From: Candidatus Bathyarchaeota archaeon
GTDB taxonomy: Archaea; Thermoproteota; Bathyarchaeia; Bathyarchaeales; Bathycorpusculaceae
Reading direction: 5' to 3'
Length of the DNA stretch: 64,000 nucleotides
Assembly: GCA_963775685.1 (NCBI GenBank)
Contig: CAVZJV010000014.1
Location: 160,001-224,000, forward strand
Positions 36,323 through 47,528 of the stretch are shown piece by piece. Below the pieces are notes generated by a model. It searched no databases. It was not told the origin of the DNA and saw nothing but the letters and a program-made list of their open reading frames with translations. The translations under genes and the position numbers were made by a program. Within the stretch, counting starts at the first letter, position 1, and every line of letters starts with the position of its first letter.

Positions 36323-37003
36323 TTAGGCATGTGTGGGTGAACCGCATTTCTTGCAAAATGAAGCTTTGTTTTTATTCTCAGCTCCGCAAGAACTGCAAAT
36401 TAACCCGGCGTAATTGTTAATTTCATCTTTTATTTTCATGCCGCAACGTTCGCAGAATAATGCGTCAGAGTCATTTTTTGAACCACAGTATTTACAGTTG
36501 AGAGTATTTGATTCTTCTTGGGGAGTCCTCAATCCTGAATTGCCTAATATTGAGGTTTTACCTTTCAGCATTTCGAAAGTTGGCAAGAAATCTAATAGTT
36601 GCATAAACTGTTCTTGATTTGGCGCAAATTTTGAAACACACTCTTCGCTTAAAATAATAAACTTTGGTTTCTTTCCTGAAATTAGTTTGACTTCTTCTAT
36701 TTCTTCGTATGTGTAAAAGCAGCTTTTTTTGCTGAGTTCTAGTTTTTTGTTAAGAGGTAAACTGTTGATTTCTTCTTCCATCTTTTGTCGGTTGATCTGT
36801 TTATCGTTGGTATTAGGCAAGGCGGTCGGTGCAATCCCATAGAGTGAAGAAGGATACCCATCTATATGCTCGAAACGACTGCTGTGTCCCATACAAACGA
36901 TTGCAATACGCTTGTCAGTAAAAACGACATCATACCGCGTGGGATTATCGAGCGGTAACAGAATATCCTTAATAACTCCAAGTTGGCGTTCAGAATCTGG
37001 CAT
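36323..37003 (-). CDS. double zinc-ribbon domain protein
   Basis: C-terminal CKYCG..FCERCG..CSSCG..FCKKCG. Confidence 0.75.
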   Translation of the reverse strand: MPDSERQLGVIKDILLPLDNPTRYDVVFTDKRIAIVCMGHSSRFEHIDGYPSSLYGIAPTALPNTNDKQINRQKMEEEINSLPLNKKLELSKKSCFYTYEEIEEVKLISGKKPKFIILSEECVSKFAPNQEQFMQLLDFLPTFEMLKGKTSILGNSGLRTPQEESNTLNCKYCGSKNDSDALFCERCGMKIKDEINNYAGLICSSCGAENKNKASFCKKCGSPTHA

Positions 37004-37238
37004 GGTTAAAAGCCTCAATACAATATTGCCTATTTACTTTTTTAAGCTTTATGAGATTGGACCATTAACTTACTCTTCTACTCTACTGACATCCGAAGGC
37101 TGGTGTATTGGACGTAACCCGGCTTTGGCTTAGTAATTTTCTACTACTTTCCCTCATTGTTATCCCTGATGTCTTGATACTGAATATCTAGTTATAAATT
37201 TTAAGGATTATCGTTCTATAAAATCAATTAAAAAACTG

Positions 37239-37362
37239 TTAGCATCCCTTTTTGAATTCATTTCCACATTTGTTACAACTGTAAACTTCCAAGCAGAAGT
37301 AAGAGTTCGCTATTTTTCTTTCTGGCTTAGATACACCATTTCCGCATTTGGGGCACAGGCAA
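37239..37362 (-). CDS. tiny CxxCG...CxxCG zinc-ribbon protein (start uncertain)
   Basis: CPKCGNGVSKPERKIANSYFCLEVYSCNKCGNEFKKGC*; no clean in-frame ATG. Confidence 0.55.
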
Positions 37363-37536
37363 GCACTGAGATACCTTTAAATCTAGAATATTTAGAAAAA
37401 TATGGTTTCTATAAAAAGTATTGTTGTCACAACGGAAAAAACAAAAGTTCGTTTTCTGGCTAAACTAAGTTTCAACGGTTCTTTCTTTGAACGTACCAAA
37501 GAGGTTATATGGTAAACCCCCAAATATACGCTATAC

Positions 37537-37765
37537 GTGACCTTCTTGGATAGACTTGAAGCAATGGCGATGCTAAAACAGTTGATGGATAGCGATTTAG
37601 TCGAACCTTCTTATGTTTCAATGGTTCAAGTAAAGCCTAACCAATTCCAGATTCAAATTAAGTGTGATTACAATAAGCAACAGATACACGAATTTTCAAA
37701 AAAAAAATGGCTTAACCATAACAGAAGATAAAGACCCAAAATACTTTGTTATCTTTAAACCATAG
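37537..37765 (+). CDS. small hypothetical protein, frameshift in the poly-A run at ~37700
   Basis: DRLEAMAMLKQLM...; continues NGLTITEDKDPKYFVIFKP* in another frame. Confidence 0.55.
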
Positions 37766-37820
37766 CTGTCCAACTCTAAGTGTGCAGGATGACTTTGAAT
37801 AGCTGTATTCTAAACTTTTC

Positions 37821-37944
37821 TTCGCAAGGTTTTCTTTCCCATACAAAACTGTCCGAAAAAAATTTTCGTTTAAATTTCTATGTTCGCAAGGTTTTCTTTC
37901 CCATACAAAACTATCCGAAAAAAACTTTCGGTTAAATTTCTATG
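37821..37944. repeat. 62-bp tandem duplication (2 copies, 3 mismatches)
   Basis: 37821-37882 vs 37883-37944: ttcgcaaggttttctttcccatacaaaact(g/a)tccgaaaaaaa(t/c)tttcg(t/g)ttaaatttctatg. Confidence 0.95.
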
Positions 37945-38023
37945 TATATATCTGTATATCAACAGATTGGTGATTTCCCCACCCTTGCCAATCAAACCCC
38001 TTTTTCTTTTTTTGGAGGCTTCT

Positions 38024-38224
38024 ATGTTAAGTGAAGCCGAGTTTACGGTTTCGGGTTTTAAATCGCGTAAGCATGAATACCGAGCCGACAAGGGTAAAAA
38101 ACATAGTTATCCAGAGCAGAGAGCAGCGCCCTATACGTATTGTAGTAAGAGGCGTTTAGGGAAGCGGAACGACAAAAACCAAATTCCTATTTACTATTAT
38201 TTACCGCGCGGAAGCTACGCTTAA
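38024..38224 (+). CDS. small basic hypothetical protein
   Basis: GGAGG RBS then ATG; RADKGKKH motif. Confidence 0.55.
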   Translation: MLSEAEFTVSGFKSRKHEYRADKGKKHSYPEQRAAPYTYCSKRRLGKRNDKNQIPIYYYLPRGSYA

Positions 38225-38246
38225 AGAAAAGGTTCGTGGATTTATC

Positions 38247-38558
38247 TCAGTCAAGAAGTCCTCTTTCCACTCTGTAATTACGACCTTTTTTCTTCTGCAT
38301 CTTCTTCTGTAACGGTCTCATAGGCGCTTTTTTGGATGCTTTAGATTCAACATAAAGATGTTCTCTTCCTTTAACAGCATCAAAATCGTATCCGGTTTTC
38401 CTAGTCGTTGTAGTGTAACCAGCCATAGCATATTTTACTTCATCAAGTTTCTGTTTGCCTAAACCAATTTCTCTATTTTGATTAACCCGAATCCTTTTTG
38501 CCACTTTGCTTGGGTTAGAGCGCTTCTTTTTTCTTCTTTTTTGAACCAAACAAATCAA
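38247..38558 (-). CDS. small PD-(D/E)xK nuclease-like protein
   Basis: AGY...TGYDFDAVKGREHLYVESKAS...RPLQK matches the D...ExK restriction-endonuclease fold (Hjc/VRR-Nuc-like). Confidence 0.7.
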   Translation of the reverse strand: MICLVQKRRKKKRSNPSKVAKRIRVNQNREIGLGKQKLDEVKYAMAGYTTTTRKTGYDFDAVKGREHLYVESKASKKAPMRPLQKKMQKKKGRNYRVERGLLD

Positions 38559-38766
38559 AGTCGATGCTCATAATAACGCTTCTATATCTTAGAGATTTTG
38601 TTTATAACTCTTGCTATTAAAAGGTCACTTGTAATCGAAAGAAGACTGAAAAAAAACTAAAAGCCTAATAATAGAACATACTCTCTTTTTCTTTTTTTGG
38701 AGGCTTTTTAGTTGTTTAGCGAATTAACCAAAGCTTAAGAGTGCTATCAGTAGACAACAGTTAACG

Positions 38767-39051
38767 GTGAATAAAATGGAACTGGGAAAGGAACTAGAAG
38801 AGTATGTTCGTTCTGTATGCACTAACATTCAAAATGGGATAACAGACGGGCTGATGCTTGATGGTGCGATAGAGTTTGAGTTAGCAGTTGTAAACACAAA
38901 AGAGGTTGGCGGGGGTTTGAAGCTATTTGTTTTGGATGCAAGAGGTGACTACAGCAAAGAGGAAATCAGTAAAATCAAGTTCAAAATCGCTAAAAAACCT
39001 CGACCCCCGAAAGTGGGGGGTGGGTCTGTGCCGAGTCTGTTCGATAGATAA
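38767..39051 (+). CDS. Trypco2-like small protein
   Basis: IEFELAVVNTKEVGGGLKLFVLDARG...SKIKFKI pattern. Confidence 0.6.
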   Translation: MNKMELGKELEEYVRSVCTNIQNGITDGLMLDGAIEFELAVVNTKEVGGGLKLFVLDARGDYSKEEISKIKFKIAKKPRPPKVGGGSVPSLFDR

Positions 39052-39061
39052 TTCTCTTCTT

Positions 39062-39195
39062 CTATTTTTCTAATTTAATGTCCATGAAGTCAATTTTCTT
39101 AGAAGTATTCTGTATTAGGATTATCCACTTGTTTTTGCCTTCAATTGTTATTCCACAGCTTCGCTTGGGGTTTTGCCGTCTAAGGCTTCATGCGG
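39062..39195 (-). pseudogene. C-terminal remnant of a DDE (IS6-like, archaeal) transposase
   Basis: PHEALDGKTPSEA/GITIEGKNKWIILIQNTSKK, resembling the RPHxxLxGKTPxEAxGIxIxGxNKWxxLIQNA tail of archaeal DDE transposases. Confidence 0.7.
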
Positions 39196-39334
39196 TCAAA
39201 GAAAGCGTATGTTTAGAAAAAGCAGCTCAACCGAAGGAAAACAAATAGACAATTGTTTAGATTGACTACTGCTATTGGAATTTATCCTTAAACCCTTCAA
39301 GCGGTAAAATGACTGTGAGGCTGAAGAGTAGAGA

Positions 39335-39511
39335 ATGAAGCCAAAAGTCACAAAGAAAAAACGTGCTAAAATCTTAATGACTGAATTGGAATTGGCAAAC
39401 AGTGCCTTACTAAATGAGCAGCTCTACAAGGACCTAGGCGCTTACAAGGAACATAAGAAACTGCAAAGACAAATTCATCAACGTCAAGGCTGGATGGAGT
39501 ACATCCGATAA
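39335..39511 (+). CDS. small basic hypothetical protein (58 aa)
   Basis: MKPKVTKKKRAKILMTELE...MEYIR*; stop overlaps the next ATG (TAATG). Confidence 0.55.
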   Translation: MKPKVTKKKRAKILMTELELANSALLNEQLYKDLGAYKEHKKLQRQIHQRQGWMEYIR

Positions 39512-39675
39512 TGAGACGCATTTTCTATGTTATGCGTCAATCCACAGTAACCCGATGCAACAACCCAGAATCCCCAGTTTGCCATGTCTTAATCAAAAAG
39601 GGCGACATAGTTTTTGTTTCTGCAACCGGAAAAATCAAGCATCAAACCTGCTATGAGAGGTGCCTTATTGACTAA
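39511..39675 (+). CDS. small zinc-finger-like protein (54 aa)
   Basis: RCNNPESPVCHVLIKKGD...KHQTCYERC; translationally coupled to both neighbours. Confidence 0.55.
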   Translation: MRRIFYVMRQSTVTRCNNPESPVCHVLIKKGDIVFVSATGKIKHQTCYERCLID

Positions 39676-39970
39676 CCCCGCAAACAAGTGGGCTAAACAC
39701 CGCAAACCCGATTTAATCCGTAAAGTTTTCCCTAGCAAACATGGCTGTCAACACCGAGGATGCAAAGAAAAACGCGTAAGCAAACTTCAATTCGCACACA
39801 CCAAACAAACCCCTTTAAGCCGCACAGGTCCACGCGGCAGAAAAGAAAAATTCGCAGACATCAACAAGCATCCAGAAGCCTACAAAGTTGAATGCCATAA
39901 ACACCATTTAACCGATAAAGCCCCTGCGAAACATGACGCAAGAATGCGGCGCTTAGGGAAGCGAAGGTGA
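39668..39970 (+). CDS. HNH-like endonuclease / zinc-binding basic protein
   Basis: GAGGTG RBS plus TTG; CQHRGC...LQFAH...KVECHKHH. Confidence 0.55.
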   Translation: MTNPANKWAKHRKPDLIRKVFPSKHGCQHRGCKEKRVSKLQFAHTKQTPLSRTGPRGRKEKFADINKHPEAYKVECHKHHLTDKAPAKHDARMRRLGKRR

Positions 39971-40043
39971 TTGTATGGCAAGACAAAAAATAAGAATTCA
40001 ACAAGCAAGAAAAAAGAAACCCTACTATTAAGGAGAAAACAAA

Positions 40044-40532
40044 ATGCGACCTCGAATAAGTCAAGATGAAGCGCAATACATTGTATCTCTACTAGATGTA
40101 AGTAGCTATGTTCTAACAGAAAAAGAAAAAGAGATAAATCGTTTATCAGTTGAGGTAAAGCAGCTTCGAGATATGATTTTATTAGACACATACAAAGCAA
40201 GCCAAGTTTTTAAAATCCGAGAGAAAAAAGAACGTCTAAAAAAATTGGAAATACTAAAGTTTAATCTCTATTCAAATATTGAACTTCACATAAAACTTAG
40301 AGAAAAATACCTGGCTATCGCAGAAAACAAACCCCATGACGGCCGCTATAAATCCTTGTCAACAAAAAAGCGTTTTAGATATACGGATTCTAAGTCTTTA
40401 ACTTCTTTAGCGTTGACTGATACCTCAATTAATGCAGAGGAAGAAAAACAAATCTCGGAATATTACGAGAAATATATTAGAGGTCATGTTCCAAACAAAA
40501 AGTTCTTGGGTGGAATAGGAGTTTTCAGATGA
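40044..40532 (+). CDS. hypothetical coiled-coil protein
   Basis: AGGAG RBS, 162-aa ORF. Confidence 0.65.
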   Translation: MRPRISQDEAQYIVSLLDVSSYVLTEKEKEINRLSVEVKQLRDMILLDTYKASQVFKIREKKERLKKLEILKFNLYSNIELHIKLREKYLAIAENKPHDGRYKSLSTKKRFRYTDSKSLTSLALTDTSINAEEEKQISEYYEKYIRGHVPNKKFLGGIGVFR

Positions 40533-40630
40533 AATTAATTAAAAGAATTAGCTTTAATTGTTTTTTATTATTTGGTAATTCAAAGTTAATTATCTATGGA
40601 AAAAAACTAATTAGGAGTAATTAGAAAAAA

Positions 40631-41338
40631 ATGCAGGAATACCATAGATTAAATGTTTATGATTATGTTAACGAGTTTTGCGGTTGGGCCGCCTTAGAAG
40701 AATTAACAAAGTACGCAGGTTCTCCAAGAAACGAATTATATCTATTAGGTTTGATTAAAACAAGTGGCAGAGCTACAGAGGTTTTATGCCTTGAAAAAGA
40801 AAACTTTAATGTTATTCCTAAAAAGAAATACATCTTAGTTCAAAACATGAAACTTGAAAAGCGGTGGCGCAAAGTAAAGCTGCAGGATGGTTCAAGCGTA
40901 AGAGAACACATGGAAGCAATAAGAAAACCTTTCCCAGTATTATTGAAAGAACCATTAAGTCAAGAGCTTTTAGAACATTTAGAAGCAAGCAAAGACGGTG
41001 GTTTATTTGTTAGCCCATACAAAGCGCATAAACCATTAACGCGAGATTGGGGCTATAAGCTGATACGAAGAATAAATGATGATATTCCAAGATCGCTGTT
41101 CAATCGGTTGGGCTTGAATATTACGTTTAGGGATAGAGTAACGCAGGCAGCTACAGCAGACATGATTCATTTATGGCAACATTGGTTTAGAAGTAAAAGA
41201 GCCAGCCAGCTAAGAGCCGAATATGATTTTAGTGAACCCGACTTAATGGAGTTCTTTGGTTGGCTTGACTATAAGACAGCTCTGCATTATAGCAAGTTGG
41301 GCGCGTCTAACTTAGCTAAAAAGATGCTAAAAGCCTAA
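40631..41338 (+). CDS. tyrosine recombinase (catalytic domain only)
   Basis: TSGRATE (R), K in LEKRW, HWFRSKRA (HxxR), FFGW, TALHYS (catalytic Y). Confidence 0.85.
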   Translation: MQEYHRLNVYDYVNEFCGWAALEELTKYAGSPRNELYLLGLIKTSGRATEVLCLEKENFNVIPKKKYILVQNMKLEKRWRKVKLQDGSSVREHMEAIRKPFPVLLKEPLSQELLEHLEASKDGGLFVSPYKAHKPLTRDWGYKLIRRINDDIPRSLFNRLGLNITFRDRVTQAATADMIHLWQHWFRSKRASQLRAEYDFSEPDLMEFFGWLDYKTALHYSKLGASNLAKKMLKA

Positions 41339-42034
41339 CCTTAGAAACCTTGTTTTCCTTGTTTTACTAGGGATAATTATTTAATCATACTAAATAGAGA
41401 TAGAATTAGGCTCTTTAAACTCTATTTAATGTTGATTATTCCATAGAGATGAAAGGAATAATTAACATGGTACTAAACCAAAAGGAGCGCAATCTATTCT
41501 TTATTTGTATCCTAATTAATTTATATACGTGGAAACCCCCGTTTTTTAAGGGTTTGCGGTACCAAAAATAAAAAAAAGATAGGTTTAATGCGGCTTCATT
41601 AAGCATACACGGCTTTGCGTAGCTTACTAACCACATACCTATAAGGCATGTCCAGCCATTCATAAACGCGGTGTACAAGCACCAAGATATAGATAAGTAC
41701 CTTAGCCCACTTTGACAGCACATGTTTAGAAGCTGGTAAGTTGAATAAGTTACAGCTACAATAACGCGCACTGTTAAAGTCTATGTGTTTATGATAGCCA
41801 AATCTACATCTATAAAAACGGTTGGCTTTAGTGCTAAGTTTCTCTTTACGCAGCCCTTACAGTTAACGCATACCCAATCTTGCTTCGCGCCGAACGGTCG
41901 ATCAGCGTCAGCTCCCCAATTAGCCTGTTTAAGCATCTCACTTGAAGATTGAGTTAATGTGCGAACCTCAAAAAACAACTTTGCAGCTTTGAGGGTATAT
42001 GGTTAAATTTAAAAAATCTCTTTAATATTGCTAA

Positions 42035-42550
42035 TCATTCTTTAGCAGCTTCCTTCTCTGCATCCAACATTATAACAAGCGCAAGTTTACCTTCACGCGG
42101 TTTTAGTCCGAAGAAAGCCTTTAGAAATCTTAGAGCAACACCGCTAAGTATAGCTTCGACCTTTTTCTCAAAAATCTCTCTAGGTTGATCGTGAGGGTTT
42201 GTTATGAAAGCAGCGACTAAAAATTTTCCATCAGTTTTATATTTATAAACCGGCTTAGGAATACTTTTGATAAATCTTATTGCTTCATACTTTCCAAGTT
42301 GTGTTTCAACATCTTTAGCATTTTCCGCTTTTATTCTATACCATTGGCTTCTTCTATCCCCAGCCTTATCAAAATGTTCAATTTTTCCTTGTGATTCTAA
42401 TAGCTTGACGTATTCTGCTTAGTCTGTTGGTTCCGATACGTGTAATCCTTCTCTTAATTGTTTGAAATTTAGCTCTTTACGCTTTGTGAGCAAAGATTGA
42501 AGTTTTAAAAGGTTATCGTTACGGTCATTTTTTGCCCAGATGTTTGTCAA
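42035..42550 (-). pseudogene. winged-helix (ArsR/MarR-like) regulator with in-frame TAA at ~42420
   Basis: AGGTGA RBS plus TTG; LNFKQLREGLHVSEPTD*AEYVKLLESQGKIEHFDKAGDRRSQWYRI; same frame either side of the stop (172 codons). Confidence 0.7.
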
Positions 42551-42616
42551 ATCATCACCTAAGTTACTTAACTTATCCTAAGCTATTATATATATTTTAT
42601 CACAATATTGTTAGCC

Positions 42617-42853
42617 ATGCCAATCTTAAGGAAAATATTGAATGTTGGCGATAGCCAAGCCGTAACACTTCCAAAGTCATGGCTACGGACCGCAGAAGAA
42701 GCAGAAGGAAAAAAAGCCATAGCCGTTGCAATGGAAGTTGACGGATCAATTACCCTAAACCCTGTTTTTGAAAAAGAACAAAAGGCTGGAGTGACCCCCC
42801 GAGAAGGAAACCACGCCAGCCAGCAACCCCGGAGGATTGCCAATAATGAATAA
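42617..42853 (+). CDS. AbrB/MazE/SpoVT-type DNA-binding protein
   Basis: LRKILNVGDSQAVTLPKSW...MEVDGSITLNP. Confidence 0.85.
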   Translation: MPILRKILNVGDSQAVTLPKSWLRTAEEAEGKKAIAVAMEVDGSITLNPVFEKEQKAGVTPREGNHASQQPRRIANNE

Positions 42854-43052
42854 TTCTTATTCTACACTTAAGAATTTTGCTACTACGCGACCAACAGCAA
42901 GCCGTTTTGTAATAGTAGCAAAAATCTATCTGAGCAACAGCAAAAAAACCGTCAAGATTCTTGACTTAGACGGTCGCCTTTTAGGCATCGCATTACGCAA
43001 CGAAATTTCTAGATCTTTTAGCTGGAAAAGTCAGCCATGTAAACGTAGTTAA
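42846..43052 (+). CDS. small hypothetical protein
   Basis: GGAGG RBS, overlaps the AbrB stop, lies in the replication operon. Confidence 0.55.
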   Translation: MNNSYSTLKNFATTRPTASRFVIVAKIYLSNSKKTVKILDLDGRLLGIALRNEISRSFSWKSQPCKRS

Positions 43053-43076
43053 ACCCCAACATGGAGCGCCAACACA

Positions 43077-44042
43077 ATGAACTCCGAGCTATTAAGCGCG
43101 ATCTACGCATATCACGACATAGGATTAGCCATTATTCCATTCTACATAAACAAAGAAGGAAAAAAACGACCAAACTTAGACGAAGGCGAAAAATGGGAGC
43201 AATGGCAAACACAGCCACAAACAAAAGCAGAATTAGAAAAGTACATACCCCGCATACTTGAAAAAGAATTATTCGGAATTGTCACCGGAACACCTATCCA
43301 AGTTGACGGAGAAACCTATTATTACCAAATCATAGACCGCGACATAAAAGACCCTGATTTAACCGAGGAAATCAAAGAGAAAAGCAAACAAGCCATAAAC
43401 TTAATGCGAACAACTAAAACCATAAGAACCCTCAGCGGCGGCGACCACTTAGATTATTATAGCCGAACCCAAAGCAAAGGCAAAAAACTAAACAAAGTAG
43501 GCATGGAATTTTTAGCTACCGGGAACTTGTGTGTAATGCCACCTAGTAAAGGCTATTCACTTGTCAACGATAATTTACCCGCTATCGTTGATAACGTCGA
43601 AGATATGTTTTTTGATTGTATAGAAAAAGCTGGACTAGCCACCCAACAATTAACCACAAAAACACTAAAAGCCTTAGAAACACCCAAAACCTACAGAAAA
43701 AAGAATTTGCGCCCATGCTTCTTAAAACTGATGGAAAAGGACCACCTAGAACACTTAGAAAAAGTTGCTTTAATTTATGAATTGTATTTTTGCGGCAGAA
43801 CCGACCAAGAAATAGCGGAGTTATTCCATGAACACCAAGCATGGGAACCAGCGCCAAGACACCATTACAACCAAATAGAAACAGACAAAGCAATACAAAC
43901 CACCTTAGACTATGCCAAAAAAGACTATTTCAGATATAAGAAAGAAACCTTAGCAGGCTTAGGGATATGTAGCGCAACTTGTGAATATATCCAAGAACCC
44001 GATTGCCGCGAAAAATCAAGAAACAGTCAACCGACAACATAA
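43077..44042 (+). CDS. bifunctional primase-polymerase (Prim-Pol) with PriL-like C-terminal domain
   Basis: IIPF..KKRP, FGIVTG, IDRD, TLSGGDHLDY, CVMPPS; then RPCF..HLEHLEK..G..EIAELF..GICSATC. Confidence 0.8.
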   Translation: MNSELLSAIYAYHDIGLAIIPFYINKEGKKRPNLDEGEKWEQWQTQPQTKAELEKYIPRILEKELFGIVTGTPIQVDGETYYYQIIDRDIKDPDLTEEIKEKSKQAINLMRTTKTIRTLSGGDHLDYYSRTQSKGKKLNKVGMEFLATGNLCVMPPSKGYSLVNDNLPAIVDNVEDMFFDCIEKAGLATQQLTTKTLKALETPKTYRKKNLRPCFLKLMEKDHLEHLEKVALIYELYFCGRTDQEIAELFHEHQAWEPAPRHHYNQIETDKAIQTTLDYAKKDYFRYKKETLAGLGICSATCEYIQEPDCREKSRNSQPTT

Positions 44043-45628
44043 ACCCAATAGCAGATATAGCCAAGATCATTGAGAAAAAATACAGTTTTGCAGTAGAAAA
44101 AAACACAGAGATCCTTTATGTATTTGACACCGAGCAAGGCATCTATACAAGTAAAACAGAGCCACTAATCAACACTGAAATCTGTATCTTACTGGATGAT
44201 GAAACCCGCGTTAAATACTTCAAAGATGTTGACAACTGGATAAGAAGCAACCCAAAAACGCCAAGAGTAGAATTTAATGCCGACACAAACATAATAGCAG
44301 TTAAAAACGGAATATTGCATTTAGACACCAAAACTTTAGAGCAAATTGGGCCGCAATTCTACCTAACAAACAAGATACCACACAACTTTAAACCAAACGC
44401 AGAATGTCAACCAATAAAAGACTTCTTAGCTGTATCAATGCCAAACGAGAAACACCGCCTACAACACCAAGAATTTTTAGGCAAAATCATAGGCAGAGAA
44501 AACCACCATTTCCACGAATACGGAATAATGCAAGGTGAGGGAAATAATGGCAAATCAGTCTTAATTGACATAGACACCTACTTTTTAGGAAAAGACAACA
44601 TAAGCAGCCAAACACTACAATCCTTAATTTATGACAAATTCGCAACTGCCAAACTAAAAGATAAATTTGCCAATTTTTGCGCAGACCTACCTAGTACAAT
44701 GCTTAAACACATGGGAACAATAAACATGATTGCAGCAGGCGACCGCATAACCTCACAAAACAAATATGGCGATCCGTTCGACTGGAAACCAAACTTAGGC
44801 ATGATGTTTAGCTGTAACGAAGCCCCAGCCATAGACCCCTCAGAGGACCACACAGGCACTTATAGACGCATCTTGATATGGGATTTCCCAGTGACGTTTA
44901 GCCCGAATGACCCCGACCCAACACACCGCGAAGATAAAATGCTTAGGGATAAGCTGATGAATGAAGATCTTTTGGAGGGCTATCTCAACTATGCTATCGA
45001 AGGCTTAGAACGCCTAAAAACACAAGAAGATTTTACCGCAAAGTTAGCACCACAAGAAACCCGAATAGCATACATTAAACGATCAAATAGCCCACAAGCC
45101 TTTATAATGGAATGTTGCCAAGACACCGACGACGAGAACGACATAGTATTTGCAGACGACCTTTTTAGAATGTATATAGCGTATTGCGTAGCCAAAAAAC
45201 TAACAAGACGAACCAAAGGAGAACTAACAAAAGCATTATACAACTATGCCCCAGGCGCGGAAAAAACAAAAGCTAAAAAAGACCCTGAAAATAAGCAATC
45301 CCCCAGAGTTTATGCGTTTAGATTCCTAAAAGTGCCTAACTTGGACAACTTGGACAACCACTTTTCAAAAGTATTAAAAAATAATTCTCAACAACAAAAA
45401 ATAAAAGTTTTAGAAAATGGTTGTCCATCTTATCCATCTGAGACAAAAAAATTGGCGCTAGGGGAAAACCGAACTTGTTTTCCTGAATGTAAAAACTATC
45501 ATCAAGCGGCTTGTGAAAAAGAGAATTATGGAATGTTACTACCTAACACTTCTATTTTTGGTTGTAAGAGTTTTGCAGCTCATAACGAAGAGAGGAGGTT
45601 TTCCAATAATGGAAGCCCAAACCGTTAA
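44003..45628 (+). CDS. D5/P4-type SF3 helicase (possibly fused to the upstream Prim-Pol via a frameshift)
   Basis: AVKNGIL D5_N motif, GEGNNGKS Walker A, KYGDPF, MFSCNEAP motif C, YRRILIWDFP. Confidence 0.9.
   Translation: MPRKIKKQSTDNINPIADIAKIIEKKYSFAVEKNTEILYVFDTEQGIYTSKTEPLINTEICILLDDETRVKYFKDVDNWIRSNPKTPRVEFNADTNIIAVKNGILHLDTKTLEQIGPQFYLTNKIPHNFKPNAECQPIKDFLAVSMPNEKHRLQHQEFLGKIIGRENHHFHEYGIMQGEGNNGKSVLIDIDTYFLGKDNISSQTLQSLIYDKFATAKLKDKFANFCADLPSTMLKHMGTINMIAAGDRITSQNKYGDPFDWKPNLGMMFSCNEAPAIDPSEDHTGTYRRILIWDFPVTFSPNDPDPTHREDKMLRDKLMNEDLLEGYLNYAIEGLERLKTQEDFTAKLAPQETRIAYIKRSNSPQAFIMECCQDTDDENDIVFADDLFRMYIAYCVAKKLTRRTKGELTKALYNYAPGAEKTKAKKDPENKQSPRVYAFRFLKVPNLDNLDNHFSKVLKNNSQQQKIKVLENGCPSYPSETKKLALGENRTCFPECKNYHQAACEKENYGMLLPNTSIFGCKSFAAHNEERRFSNNGSPNR
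45338..45440. other. putative replication origin (9-bp repeats in inverted arrangement around an A-rich spacer)
   Basis: aacttggac x2 then aaccacttttc ... gaaaatggttgtcca then tccatct x2. Confidence 0.5.
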
Positions 45629-46776
45629 GGTTGTTTGCCCCGAATGTGGCAGCAAGAGTTTTCAAAGATGGCTTTAGGGAAGCACCTTTAAACTCTGCTT
45701 CAATTGAGCCAATTCAACGCTACCGATGTGCAGATTACGGTCACCGCTGGAGCGAACACATTGTTTTAAATACTGTCAAAGCCAATAAAGAAACTAACCA
45801 TTTCAGCGCATCCGGAGCGAAAAAAATGGTTTCCATGCAAAAAACAAAAATTTGCATGGGTGAGGAAAGAACACCAACCGCTAACGAAATTAAAGCAGCC
45901 CCACATATTGAACGGTTAGCAACCCAACTATTCAACGATGGCAGAGACAAATTAACAATACGGAACTATCGCACATACTTATCGTATCTTTTAATCAACG
46001 GCGCAGACTTGTTTGATCCCGAAAGCACAAAAGCAGTCTTAGCAAAGCTACCTATGAAGAAAAACACAAAACGCCTAATCGTCAGCTTACTTAAAACCTG
46101 GTATGAATTCCACAATATAATGTGGAAAGCGCCAATATACAACCGAGACAACGAAATACCCTATATTCCAACTGAAGCAGAGTTAAATGAGCTTATAGCT
46201 GGATTAGGAAAAGTACTTGCTTGTTTCTGCTCAATTTTCAAAGATACAGGTGCAAGAAGTGGCGAGATTGCGCGGTTAACATTGAAAGACATTGACTTTA
46301 ACACGCATACTATCAACATCAAAGGTGAGAAACGCAGCAACGGCCGAATTCTACCACTGACAGAAAGAACCCTTTGCACGTTAACCAATCTGAAACGTAG
46401 AAAAGACGGAAAAATCTTTAGTAGCGTAGTAAGCCTAAGAAGCAACTTCAATATTTCACGGAATAAAATCGCGGAAAAAATCGGAAACCCCAACATCTTA
46501 AAGGTTCATTTCCATACTTTCAGACATTGGAAAGCAACAACTGAGCTTCATAACTACCATGACCGCGAGAGAGTACAAATAATACTAGGGCATAAAAGCG
46601 CAGATTCAACAGAAACTTATGTTCACATTGACAAAATGCTATATCTTAACTCAGGAACGGACCAGTTTGTTTGCAAGGTTGCTGATACCTTGGAAGAAGC
46701 GTTAAAGCTGATTGAAGTCGGCTATGAGTTTCACGTTGAGATGCAGGGGCATAAAATATTTCGGAAGCGGAAGTAA
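45609..46776 (+). CDS. tyrosine integrase with N-terminal zinc ribbon, frameshift ~45655
   Basis: GAGGAGG RBS plus ATG 45609 (MEAQTVKVVCPECGSK), VFKDGFR..QRYRC; TGARSGE, HTFRHW, LGHKS, TETYVH. Confidence 0.9.
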
Positions 46777-46880
46777 CATGCAGAAATTGCTAACATACCG
46801 ATTTTTACGTATATATATCTGCATGTTAACAAGTATTAAGTACTCCATGCCGCTGAATCAATATTCAAGAGGATATTTAC

Positions 46881-47528
46881 ATGTCTGAACGTTTCGCAAA
46901 GAAATGGGAACAAAAAAGAGAAGGGGACTCATTAAGTAAAACATTGCTTAACACAATCCAGCCGGCTCCAGCACTAAAAACCGCTTTAGACCATGCTTGC
47001 AGAAAACTAGACTTGCAAATCAACAAATTAGACCAAGCAAATGAACGCTTCACACAAAAAGACAAAGCCCTGTTCGCCAAAATCGTTGACGCCTACACTA
47101 AACATGATACTGCACATGCAAACATTTACTCAACCGAATTAGCTGAAATCCGAAAAATGTCAAAACTAATCATGAACGCAAGACTGGCACTAGACCAAGT
47201 AGCACTAAGAATACGTACAGTGTCAGAACTAGGCGATGTAGTAGCTGCACTAGGACCATGCGTTGGGGTTCTACGCAGCGTCAGCACAGGATTAGGCGGA
47301 GTTTTGCCCGAAGCAGAAGGCGAACTAGGCGACATCGGCAACATGCTAAGTGGTTTAATGCTCGAAGCAGGCTCAAGCGGCGGAATGTCACTCAACTTTG
47401 ACTCAGTAAACGAAGATGCCTCAAAAATTCTGTGCGAAGCAGCAACAGTAGCAGAGCAAAGAGTCAGTGCAAACTTCCCCGATCTACCCCCTGGAATGCC
47501 CGGAGCATCCAACAAATCAAAAGCTTAA
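46881..47528 (+). CDS. cdvB: ESCRT-III / Snf7-family cell division protein
   Basis: LDLQINKLD..DKALFAKIVDA..ANIYSTELAEIRK..LALDQVALRIRTVSELGD..EAATVAEQRV..FPDLP. Confidence 0.88.
   Translation: MSERFAKKWEQKREGDSLSKTLLNTIQPAPALKTALDHACRKLDLQINKLDQANERFTQKDKALFAKIVDAYTKHDTAHANIYSTELAEIRKMSKLIMNARLALDQVALRIRTVSELGDVVAALGPCVGVLRSVSTGLGGVLPEAEGELGDIGNMLSGLMLEAGSSGGMSLNFDSVNEDASKILCEAATVAEQRVSANFPDLPPGMPGASNKSKA

Follow-up and report, generated by a model that had tools for sequence, protein, structure and literature searches.

A probable plasmid-like integrated element with two tyrosine recombinases upstream of cdvB in a Bathyarchaeota genome

What kind of DNA has come to lie directly upstream of cdvB in this Bathyarchaeota genome, and why does it carry two tyrosine recombinases? 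These questions arise from a 64,000-nt stretch of a Candidatus Bathyarchaeota archaeon (GenBank assembly GCA_963775685.1, contig CAVZJV010000014.1, positions 160,001–224,000 of the forward strand; the whole stretch is referred to as the window), in which a preliminary description made from the letters alone had picked out a compact integrated replicon. The parts it listed (recombinases, AbrB, Prim-Pol, superfamily 3 (SF3) helicase and integrase) are all present where it placed them. Our reading, to which we assign a probability of about 0.8, is that the block represents a plasmid-like cryptic element of ~8,867 bp, integrated site-specifically and equipped with its own replication module. Elements of this sort are ordinary among archaeal mobile DNA, the known kind being cryptic integrated elements and integrative PrimPol plasmids, and the fresh feature is a conserved module composed of the shorter recombinase, rec1, and an adjacent site.

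The insertion, its borders and the cdvB locus

The insertion occupies 37945–46821 of the window (8.87 kb), between a zinc-ribbon gene and cdvB, and its predicted circle, consisting of the interior and one attachment (att) copy, measures 8,867 bp. Genes across 37.9–46.8 kb are mostly on the plus strand, and G+C is 0.42–0.47 in the flanks vs 0.32–0.40 within the element. The left host flank is the gene of a 231-aa double zinc-ribbon protein (36323–37018, minus strand; Pfam Zn_Ribbon_1/DZR), preceded by a UbiA prenyltransferase gene, and the right flank is a CdvB1/B2-like ESCRT-III gene (46881–47528, plus strand; NCBIfam 8e-51, below the equivalog cut-off).

The cdvB orthologue was located in 40 relatives, and wider regions were taken from six. 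In two genomes whose cdvB is 91% identical (G010 and G023), orthologues of the zinc-ribbon gene directly adjoin cdvB, the two genes lying head to head with ~180 bp between them, and these loci represent empty sites. An integrase upstream of cdvB was found at 0/11 orthologous cdvB loci of the genus, counted over ~1.5 kb either side. The proposal of an integrated element with two tyrosine recombinases is borne out by these empty loci, and vertical conservation of the block at this locus, which the preliminary description had named as grounds for giving the proposal up after comparing cdvB upstream regions across genomes, was not observed. Both the helicase and rec1 are single-copy in the host genome and their spread across the class is patchy, with the helicase in 28/401 genomes (at ≤35% identity over the full length) and rec1 in 15/401. 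When 37060–46900 was compared with the whole genome by blastn-short, no match fell inside the element proper, the matches being confined to a variable stretch at 37.1–37.7 kb, and Rfam returned only two chance-level rows over 36500–47500. The spot upstream of cdvB is one that takes up DNA repeatedly, with a spacer that is variable across the genus.

An exact 10-nt direct repeat, TATATATCTG, is present at 37945 and 46812, and 17 of 20 positions match over 20 nt; the direct repeat behind the borders of the preliminary description is real, yet short. The left site, attL (37944–37964, plus strand), contains the exact core GTATATATCTG at 37944–37954 and an imperfect repeat reaching 37964. The right site, attR (46809–46831, plus strand), has the core GTATATATATCTG at 46809–46821, which is the same core as GTATATATCTG with one extra TA, and overlaps a conserved TATA-like box of cdvB. 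The 11-nt word GTATATATCTG occurs once in the window vs 0.01 expected. The attR core starts 33 nt past the integrase stop, and the TATATATCTG copy at 46812 starts 36 nt past it. On the left, alignment with the host empty sites ends at ...TATATATCTG, beyond which the sequences differ, while on the right homology to them resumes at 46812, the left copy of the same words being at 37938–37954. As the att repeat is short, its weight comes from position, namely the break in homology, the distance to the integrase stop and the repeats of related elements described below.

The att motif sits in a box conserved in 11/11 cdvB upstream regions, ~60–70 nt before the start codon, which we infer to be the TATA element of the cdvB promoter. 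Insertion on this putative promoter core shows that the integrase family is not bound to tRNA genes. The element adjoins cdvB and not a tRNA, as had been noted, and no tRNA gene was found in the whole 64-kb window; this is less unusual than was implied, however, because intergenic targets account for 15/68 sites of the cryptic integrated elements of Thaumarchaeota in the accessible text of their survey (PMC6563490). The circular form would recombine via an attP located just after the integrase gene and before the first gene of the left operon. This attP would resemble the cdvB promoter core, so that integration would rebuild a TATA-like box before cdvB at attR, and would put the host copy of the box before the element's own left operon at attL.

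On its host side, attL is preceded by a 62-nt unit in two tandem copies (37821–37945; 95% match, score 229), each with a small hairpin. By eye, the 3′ part of this unit is similar to native G023 sequence to the left of the TATA-like box of cdvB, and the unit was found nowhere else in the 61 genomes searched. This duplication, in exact register and directly abutting attL, may be a by-product of integration or excision. Further left is a variable stretch (37065–37820) that is missing from the G010 and G023 empty sites and includes a 64-aa open reading frame (ORF) at 37537–37731. Segments of it (37098–37205, 37239–37355 and 37544–37765) recur at many places in the host genome and in 33/60 genus genomes, at 68–93% identity. 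We treat 37065–37820 as a separate variable region outside the element, and it is the weakest point of the border: since this 0.76-kb stretch is absent from the empty sites, the left border rests on the att repeat and on the native likeness of the 62-nt units. One recurring segment corresponds to the 64-aa ORF, another covers, in our own reading, a small Cys-rich ORF on the minus strand, and the 107-nt segment has no assignable ORF and no Rfam match. The promoter and terminator scan used was bacterial and is uninformative for an archaeon.

Other arrangements were also seen at this locus. In G012 and G003 the UbiA gene abuts cdvB and the zinc-ribbon gene is absent, and in G001 an unrelated 1.1-kb stretch (L025 14252–15366) occupies the gap upstream of cdvB.

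Gene content and related elements

The replication module comprises a PrimPol (archaeo-eukaryotic primase) domain protein of 321 aa (43077–44042, plus strand; Pfam Prim-Pol, E 4.5e-4) and an SF3 helicase of the P4/D5 type, 541 aa in length (44003–45628, plus strand; D5_N and DUF5906 in Pfam). Over 225 aa the PrimPol shares 32% identity with the N-terminal PrimPol part of the fused replicase that the related element L078 encodes, and the D-x-D and H motifs coincide in the alignment. The helicase matches phrog_864 at 4e-64 and the C-terminal model TIGR01613 (‘phage/plasmid primase, P4 family’) at 135 bits vs a cut-off of 108.7, and its Walker A motif is intact in our own reading of the sequence. 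Both proteins are therefore present as previously noted, but the replicase is split in two here: the helicase is in the −1 frame relative to the PrimPol, with the frames overlapping at 43985–44042, whereas PrimPol and helicase form one ORF of 888–964 aa in the related elements L068, L078 and L081. Just upstream of the replicase is a conserved 71-aa ORF (o71; 42837–43052, plus strand) with same-position homologues in L068 and L069. As the preliminary description had supposed, no close match to a described element was found, the helicase being <31% identical to any plasmid or phage record (four Sulfolobus records are among the plasmid matches) and rec1 having no match. The 3′ region of the helicase gene (45333–45445) contains a 44-nt imperfect inverted repeat (73% complementary) and a short tandem AACTTGGAC repeat.

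The integrase is a classical (non-split), Xer-like tyrosine integrase of 381 aa (45631–46776, plus strand; Phage_integrase 5e-18). Its catalytic residues are intact, with R209, K234, H295, R298, H321 and Y330 invariant in an alignment with relatives, and the ORF is whole, aligning end to end with those relatives, and was not split on integration. The nearest NCBIfam model is archaeal XerA, at 95 bits, far below its cut-off. The zinc ribbon by which this integrase had been labelled is degenerate in the present copy: 3/4 of its N-terminal Cys are lost and one is kept, while CxxC...CxxC is kept in 5/5 relatives. Scans of the ORFs against Pfam, PHROG, NCBIfam and PADLOC detected no capsid, packaging, conjugation or defence families, in agreement with the absence of capsid, packaging and conjugation genes reported beforehand.

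The host genome contains 15 matches to the element integrase, its own copy included, and 6/15 carry internal stops. The eight strongest besides the own copy are 29–38% identical, and matches are located at C14:1513577, 822993, 333949, 40578, 41642, 273439, 891208 and 376968, at C4:41 and elsewhere. From these sequences, the host genome seems rich in other integrase-bearing elements.

Rec1-alignment scans yielded eight metagenome loci and four genome loci, all four of the latter titled Bathyarchaeota/Bathyarchaeia metagenome-assembled genomes (MAGs). The gene order of the window is kept on an 11.3-kb contig (L068), where o118 (see below), rec1, o71, a fused 949-aa PrimPol-helicase and a zinc-ribbon integrase follow one another in the same order. 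Subsets are found elsewhere: rec1, helicase and integrase in L079 and L080; o118, rec1, o71 and integrase in L069; integrase, AbrB, o162 and rec1 in L071; and, on the 8.9-kb contig L081, a fused 888-aa replicase, o118, rec1, o162 and an integrase of another family. The L078 element (from genome G392) has a counterpart of the first gene (66 aa), o118, a fused 964-aa replicase and an integrase, and lacks rec1. Flanking repeats of 17 nt (L079) and 16 nt (L069) were detected ~48 nt past the integrase stop, that of L079 being the 5′ end of tRNA-His, whereas no flanking repeat of at least 11 nt was found for the L078 element. Targets in the 5′ half of tRNA genes have a precedent in the pTN3-like integrases, according to the accessible text of PMC8371274.

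A near-identical element lies on another contig, whose length of 8,948 bp is near the 8,867 bp predicted for the circle. The preliminary description had raised the possibility of an undescribed Bathyarchaeia family, and the recurrence of the same gene order, or subsets of it, in Bathyarchaeia MAGs and metagenomes agrees with this; judged by gene content, the element belongs to an undescribed Bathyarchaeia family of a known kind. In the literature searched we found no paper on Bathyarchaeia PrimPol plasmids, and the mobile-element papers found cover, supplements aside, viruses only. The accessible text of a survey of Bathyarchaeia viruses makes no mention of primase or PrimPol (PMC10541130).

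Integrase fragments also occur just outside the flanking repeats of two related elements (L069 5917–6741 and 17413–17607; L079 7695–8000), which suggests that earlier elements left remnants at the same site or that integration was in tandem. Many rec1 and o118 homologues are on stand-alone contigs of ~8–12 kb (for example 8,147, 8,453, 8,807, 8,872, 8,948, 9,134, 9,500, 10,093, 11,328 and 11,517 bp). Such contigs, about the size of one element, may be free circles or the product of assemblies that broke at att sites; no terminal overlap indicating circularity was detected in L067, L068, L071, L075, L076, L077 or L081.

Between the left arm and the replication module, a regulator gene of the MarR-type winged helix-turn-helix (wHTH) class (42038–42550, minus strand, 171 codons) and a small AbrB/MazE-like regulator (42608–42853, plus strand; Pfam MazE/AbrB, E 9.5e-4; 54% identical homologue in L071) are divergent, with 57 bp between them. 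The MarR frame is interrupted by an in-frame TAA at 42419–42421. By itself the interrupted frame matched nothing in Pfam or the PDB and did not match the L081 regulator by BLASTP, and its identity is taken from seven uninterrupted homologues, 6/7 with PF01047. The divergent wHTH/AbrB switch of the preliminary description is therefore present as a pair, though its wHTH partner is a broken frame. Such a pair would decide whether the element is carried silently or replicates.

The left arm begins with a 66-aa basic protein (38024–38224, plus strand), the first gene of the element, which matches no family and shares 62% identity over 55 aa with a frame that the L078 element carries at its far end. 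A very basic 103-aa ORF (38247–38558, minus strand) has no credible family, and a 94-aa ORF (38767–39051, plus strand) has a weak Trypco2 match that is below the cut-off (Pfam E 0.0018). The 118-aa conserved Cys/His protein o118 (39614–39970, plus strand) has 13 homologues and is present in L068, L069, L078 and L081; C45 and C50 are kept in ≥90% of the sequences, and H62, C94 and H97 do not vary. In its structural model (pLDDT 74) the top four VIA rows are HNH-fold nucleases (Z 2.8–3.6) and Foldseek matches are weak (E >1), hence o118 is possibly HNH-like. Beside rec1 is o162 (40044–40532, plus strand), a conserved 162-aa ORF with homologues in L071 and L081 and no match in the ESM Atlas or Pfam.

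The second recombinase and its palindromic site

The last gene of the left arm, rec1 (40631–41338, plus strand), encodes a short tyrosine recombinase of 235 aa without a separate N-terminal DNA-binding domain, recognised from PHROG matches, residues and fold. The protein itself has no Pfam match (PF00589 included) and matches two PHROG integrase families weakly, at 3e-5 and 2e-4. It has 42 homologues at 48–100% identity, two of which carry PF00589, and an alignment of 22 sequences shows no change at R47, K77, H184, R187, W211 or Y220. For its AlphaFold (AF2) model, with a pLDDT of 85, the top 11 Foldseek PDB rows among the matches listed are all tyrosine recombinases; the top rows include S. 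aureus integrase, Tn1549 Int, XerA and XerH (E 6e-4 to 1.6e-3, TM-score 0.43–0.49). A profile search of 1.84 billion representatives detected 524 clusters at E ≤1e-3 and 34 at ≤1e-30, and among distant family members 6/10 match PF00589, four of them above the cut-off. No BLAST-level relative of rec1 was found in plasmid or phage collections. Taken together, the invariant catalytic residues, the recombinase fold and the distant PF00589 matches mark rec1, on sequence and predicted structure, as a real, short and divergent tyrosine recombinase.

A candidate rec1 core site was found by comparing the DNA after rec1 in nine loci, where one short stretch matched in both orientations. In the window this is a 40-bp near-palindrome (41429–41468) with 17-nt inverted arms and a 6-nt spacer (GAGATG), starting 91 nt after the rec1 stop. 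A version is present downstream of rec1 in 9/9 rec1 loci, 20–1214 nt from the stop. The arms match each other at 13–16 of 17 positions in 6/9 loci, the other three being judged by eye, and the asymmetric spacer reads GA-n-(A/T)-T-(G/T) in 9/9 when the sites are oriented by it. Relative to rec1, the site points one way in five loci and the other way in four. A half-site pattern allowing ≤1 mismatch detected, across the 64 kb, both arms at 0 mismatches and four unpaired matches with one mismatch each, and the full arrangement occurs once in the 3.06-Mb genome. Among the 90 loci examined the full site was found only at rec1 loci, and not in L078, which lacks rec1. Core sites of tyrosine recombinases typically combine symmetric arms with a conserved but asymmetric centre, which a terminator hairpin could do without.

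The sites of Cre/loxP, ResD/rfsF and XerA/dif likewise consist of inverted arms around a short asymmetric spacer. A tyrosine recombinase beside a single inverted-arm site, here of 17-6-17 geometry, is reminiscent of Cre/loxP of P1, ResD/rfsF of F and archaeal XerA/dif (PMC8371274, in its accessible text); rec1 differs from these enzymes in its 235 aa, without a recognisable separate core-binding domain or Pfam match, and in that its fold matches are distant (TM ~0.45). Because there is one site per element, and inversion and a nested element would each need two, the arrangement favours multimer resolution as the most likely role of the module, by sequence and by analogy. In this role rec1 would act on the 40-bp site 91 nt past its gene and resolve replicon multimers, like Cre/loxP, ResD/rfsF or Xer/cer. 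The resolvase option raised in the preliminary description thus gains support from a conserved, single-copy, adjacent palindrome, while the invertase and nested-element options lack a second site in the element or in the 3.06-Mb genome and were rejected. We advance only tentatively, at rather less than even odds, the wider view that rec1 and its 40-bp 17-6-17 site form an uncharacterised, minimal and self-contained archaeal recombination system, in which a 235-aa enzyme reduced to its catalytic domain would use a lox-like target, the core module of undescribed Bathyarchaeia integrative plasmids that would enter tRNA 5′ ends or the cdvB TATA-like box via a separate zinc-ribbon integrase. An inverted repeat flanking rec1 (40593–40616 and 41510–41533, 75% complementary) was also considered and judged to be due to chance.

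Known systems, alternative explanations and significance

The closest layouts are those of cryptic integrated elements. The accessible text on the Thaumarchaeota examples describes an integrase, often a replicase of PrimPol and SF3 helicase (PrimPol-S3H, fused or split), wHTH regulators, att repeats mostly <25 bp and sizes of 2.6–98 kb (PMC6563490). The present element shares with members such as NitKor_MY1-E1 and NitAQ6f-E4 an integrase with PrimPol-S3H, wHTH regulators, a short att and a size within range (PMC6563490, accessible text), and it carries an integrase without virus, casposon, conjugation or insertion sequence (IS) hallmark families in the four scans, as is required of such elements. 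It differs in having a Bathyarchaeia host, the likeness seen here being one of layout, and in its second short recombinase with a palindrome of its own, which is not among the features described there, supplements aside (PMC6563490).

A comparison can also be made with Sulfolobales plasmids. Considering first the integrase, its whole gene in our element is unlike the arrangement in elements with an integrase of the Sulfolobus spindle-shaped virus (SSV) type. In pSSVi, pXQ1 and pSSVx-type elements, that integrase splits on integration, attP being inside the gene. The pRN-type plasmids and the hybrids pSSVi, pXQ1 and pSSVx are small circular replicons with PrimPol plus helicase, some integrative and some satellites of spindle viruses, and CopG, a ribbon-helix-helix (RHH) protein, and PlrA are core genes of the pRN family. 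The element resembles them in having a PrimPol and an SF3 helicase, but its identity to any plasmid record is <31%, and CopG/RHH was not found by Pfam in any ORF scanned, PlrA not having been searched for specifically.

The small size and lack of structural genes raise the question of whether the element is instead a virus satellite of the P4, phage-inducible chromosomal island (PICI) or pSSVx/pSSVi type, self-replicating and using the capsid of an unknown Bathyarchaeia helper, in which case packaging or helper hijacking would fall to the HNH-like protein and the small basic ones. P4 and PICI share a layout of integrase, divergent regulators and primase-helicase. The same layout is present here in ~9 kb, with a P4-family helicase above the TIGR01613 cut-off and no capsid genes; o118 is possibly an HNH-like protein, and the helicase has relatives in archaeal viruses, including a Nitrosopumilaceae spindle-shaped virus (30.5% identity). 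However, the element primase is an archaeo-eukaryotic PrimPol, whereas P4 is not known to have a primase of this kind; the host is archaeal, and there is no known helper virus. No Sid/Psu/Delta-like or small-terminase-like protein was detected in the PHROG scan, and no capsid-redirecting, small-terminase or packaging-signal homologue in the Pfam, PHROG and PADLOC scans. Pattern-based scans of IMG/VR, run with alignments of rec1 and o118 and with the helicase, returned no relative, which is not proof of absence. The layout is, moreover, equally that of non-satellite integrative plasmids in the accessible text of PMC6563490. Nothing beyond this shared layout supports a satellite, and we regard it as very improbable. 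Alternatively, rec1 might be a second integrase that uses the palindrome as attP and has a chromosomal target of its own, it might be an invertase, or it might serve a small element nested in the larger one; such functions are less far-fetched and still clearly improbable. At the same loci rec1 is 60–81% identical vs 26–49% for the helicase and 30–35% for the integrase, which would fit a cassette moving between elements. Also in favour of such functions are the integrase of another family, with a SAM-like N-terminal domain, that partners rec1 in L081, and the variable orientation of the site. Set against this is the single site in the element and the genome, with no inverted copy, no flanking hybrid sites and no chromosomal look-alike, and the position of rec1, which in most loci is constant as the last left-arm gene before the regulators.

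Several observations weigh against a site-specifically integrated element with a working replication module. The exact att repeat is only 10–11 nt long, and the ~0.76 kb left of attL (37065–37820) is absent from both empty sites as well. Several ORFs, most of those in the left arm, match no family, hence structural genes could be hidden among them, and the Pfam score of the PrimPol is below the gathering threshold. Only association ties rec1 to the palindrome, which could instead serve as operator, origin element or terminator. Finally, three defects (the MarR stop, the split replicase and the loss of zinc-binding Cys from the integrase) mean that the element may no longer move or replicate. 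These defects are the main grounds for viewing it as a dead remnant, a once-mobile element that is fixed and decaying, with no present function beyond possible host co-option. The MarR gene has its in-frame TAA while a product of the 8,948-bp contig, P0204, is 99% identical and uninterrupted, the replicase is in two frames where relatives have one ORF, the integrase has lost 3/4 zinc ligands, and a 1.2-kb stretch (41339–42607) is poorly coding. Yet the catalytic residues of both recombinases, the PrimPol motifs and the helicase Walker A are intact, and split PrimPol/S3H genes are found in working-looking elements, e.g. CalSub-E1, in the accessible text of PMC6563490. The PrimPol/helicase frame change is at a run of five A and, in our own reading, the MarR defect relative to P0204 looks like a deletion paired with an insertion. 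The 8,948-bp contig also encodes P0044, which is o118 of the window read through several frame changes, hence long-read indel errors are a live alternative. With two assemblies of nearly the same element, each with indel-type defects of its own, decay and assembly error are indistinguishable; this copy may be crippled, and some of its defects could instead be assembly errors. We consider a dead remnant unlikely, although the least unlikely of these alternatives, and retain an integrated, plasmid-like element as the best account of the locus.

Current ideas are not overturned by this element, which is ordinary archaeal mobile DNA. Bathyarchaeia are, however, abundant and mostly uncultured, and a small replicon in which the ends, the replication genes and two recombination systems have been mapped would be a natural start for a vector in this group, an argument likewise made for the Thaumarchaeota elements in the accessible text of PMC6563490. 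The pair of rec1 and its site, if active, would in addition be a compact recombinase tool.

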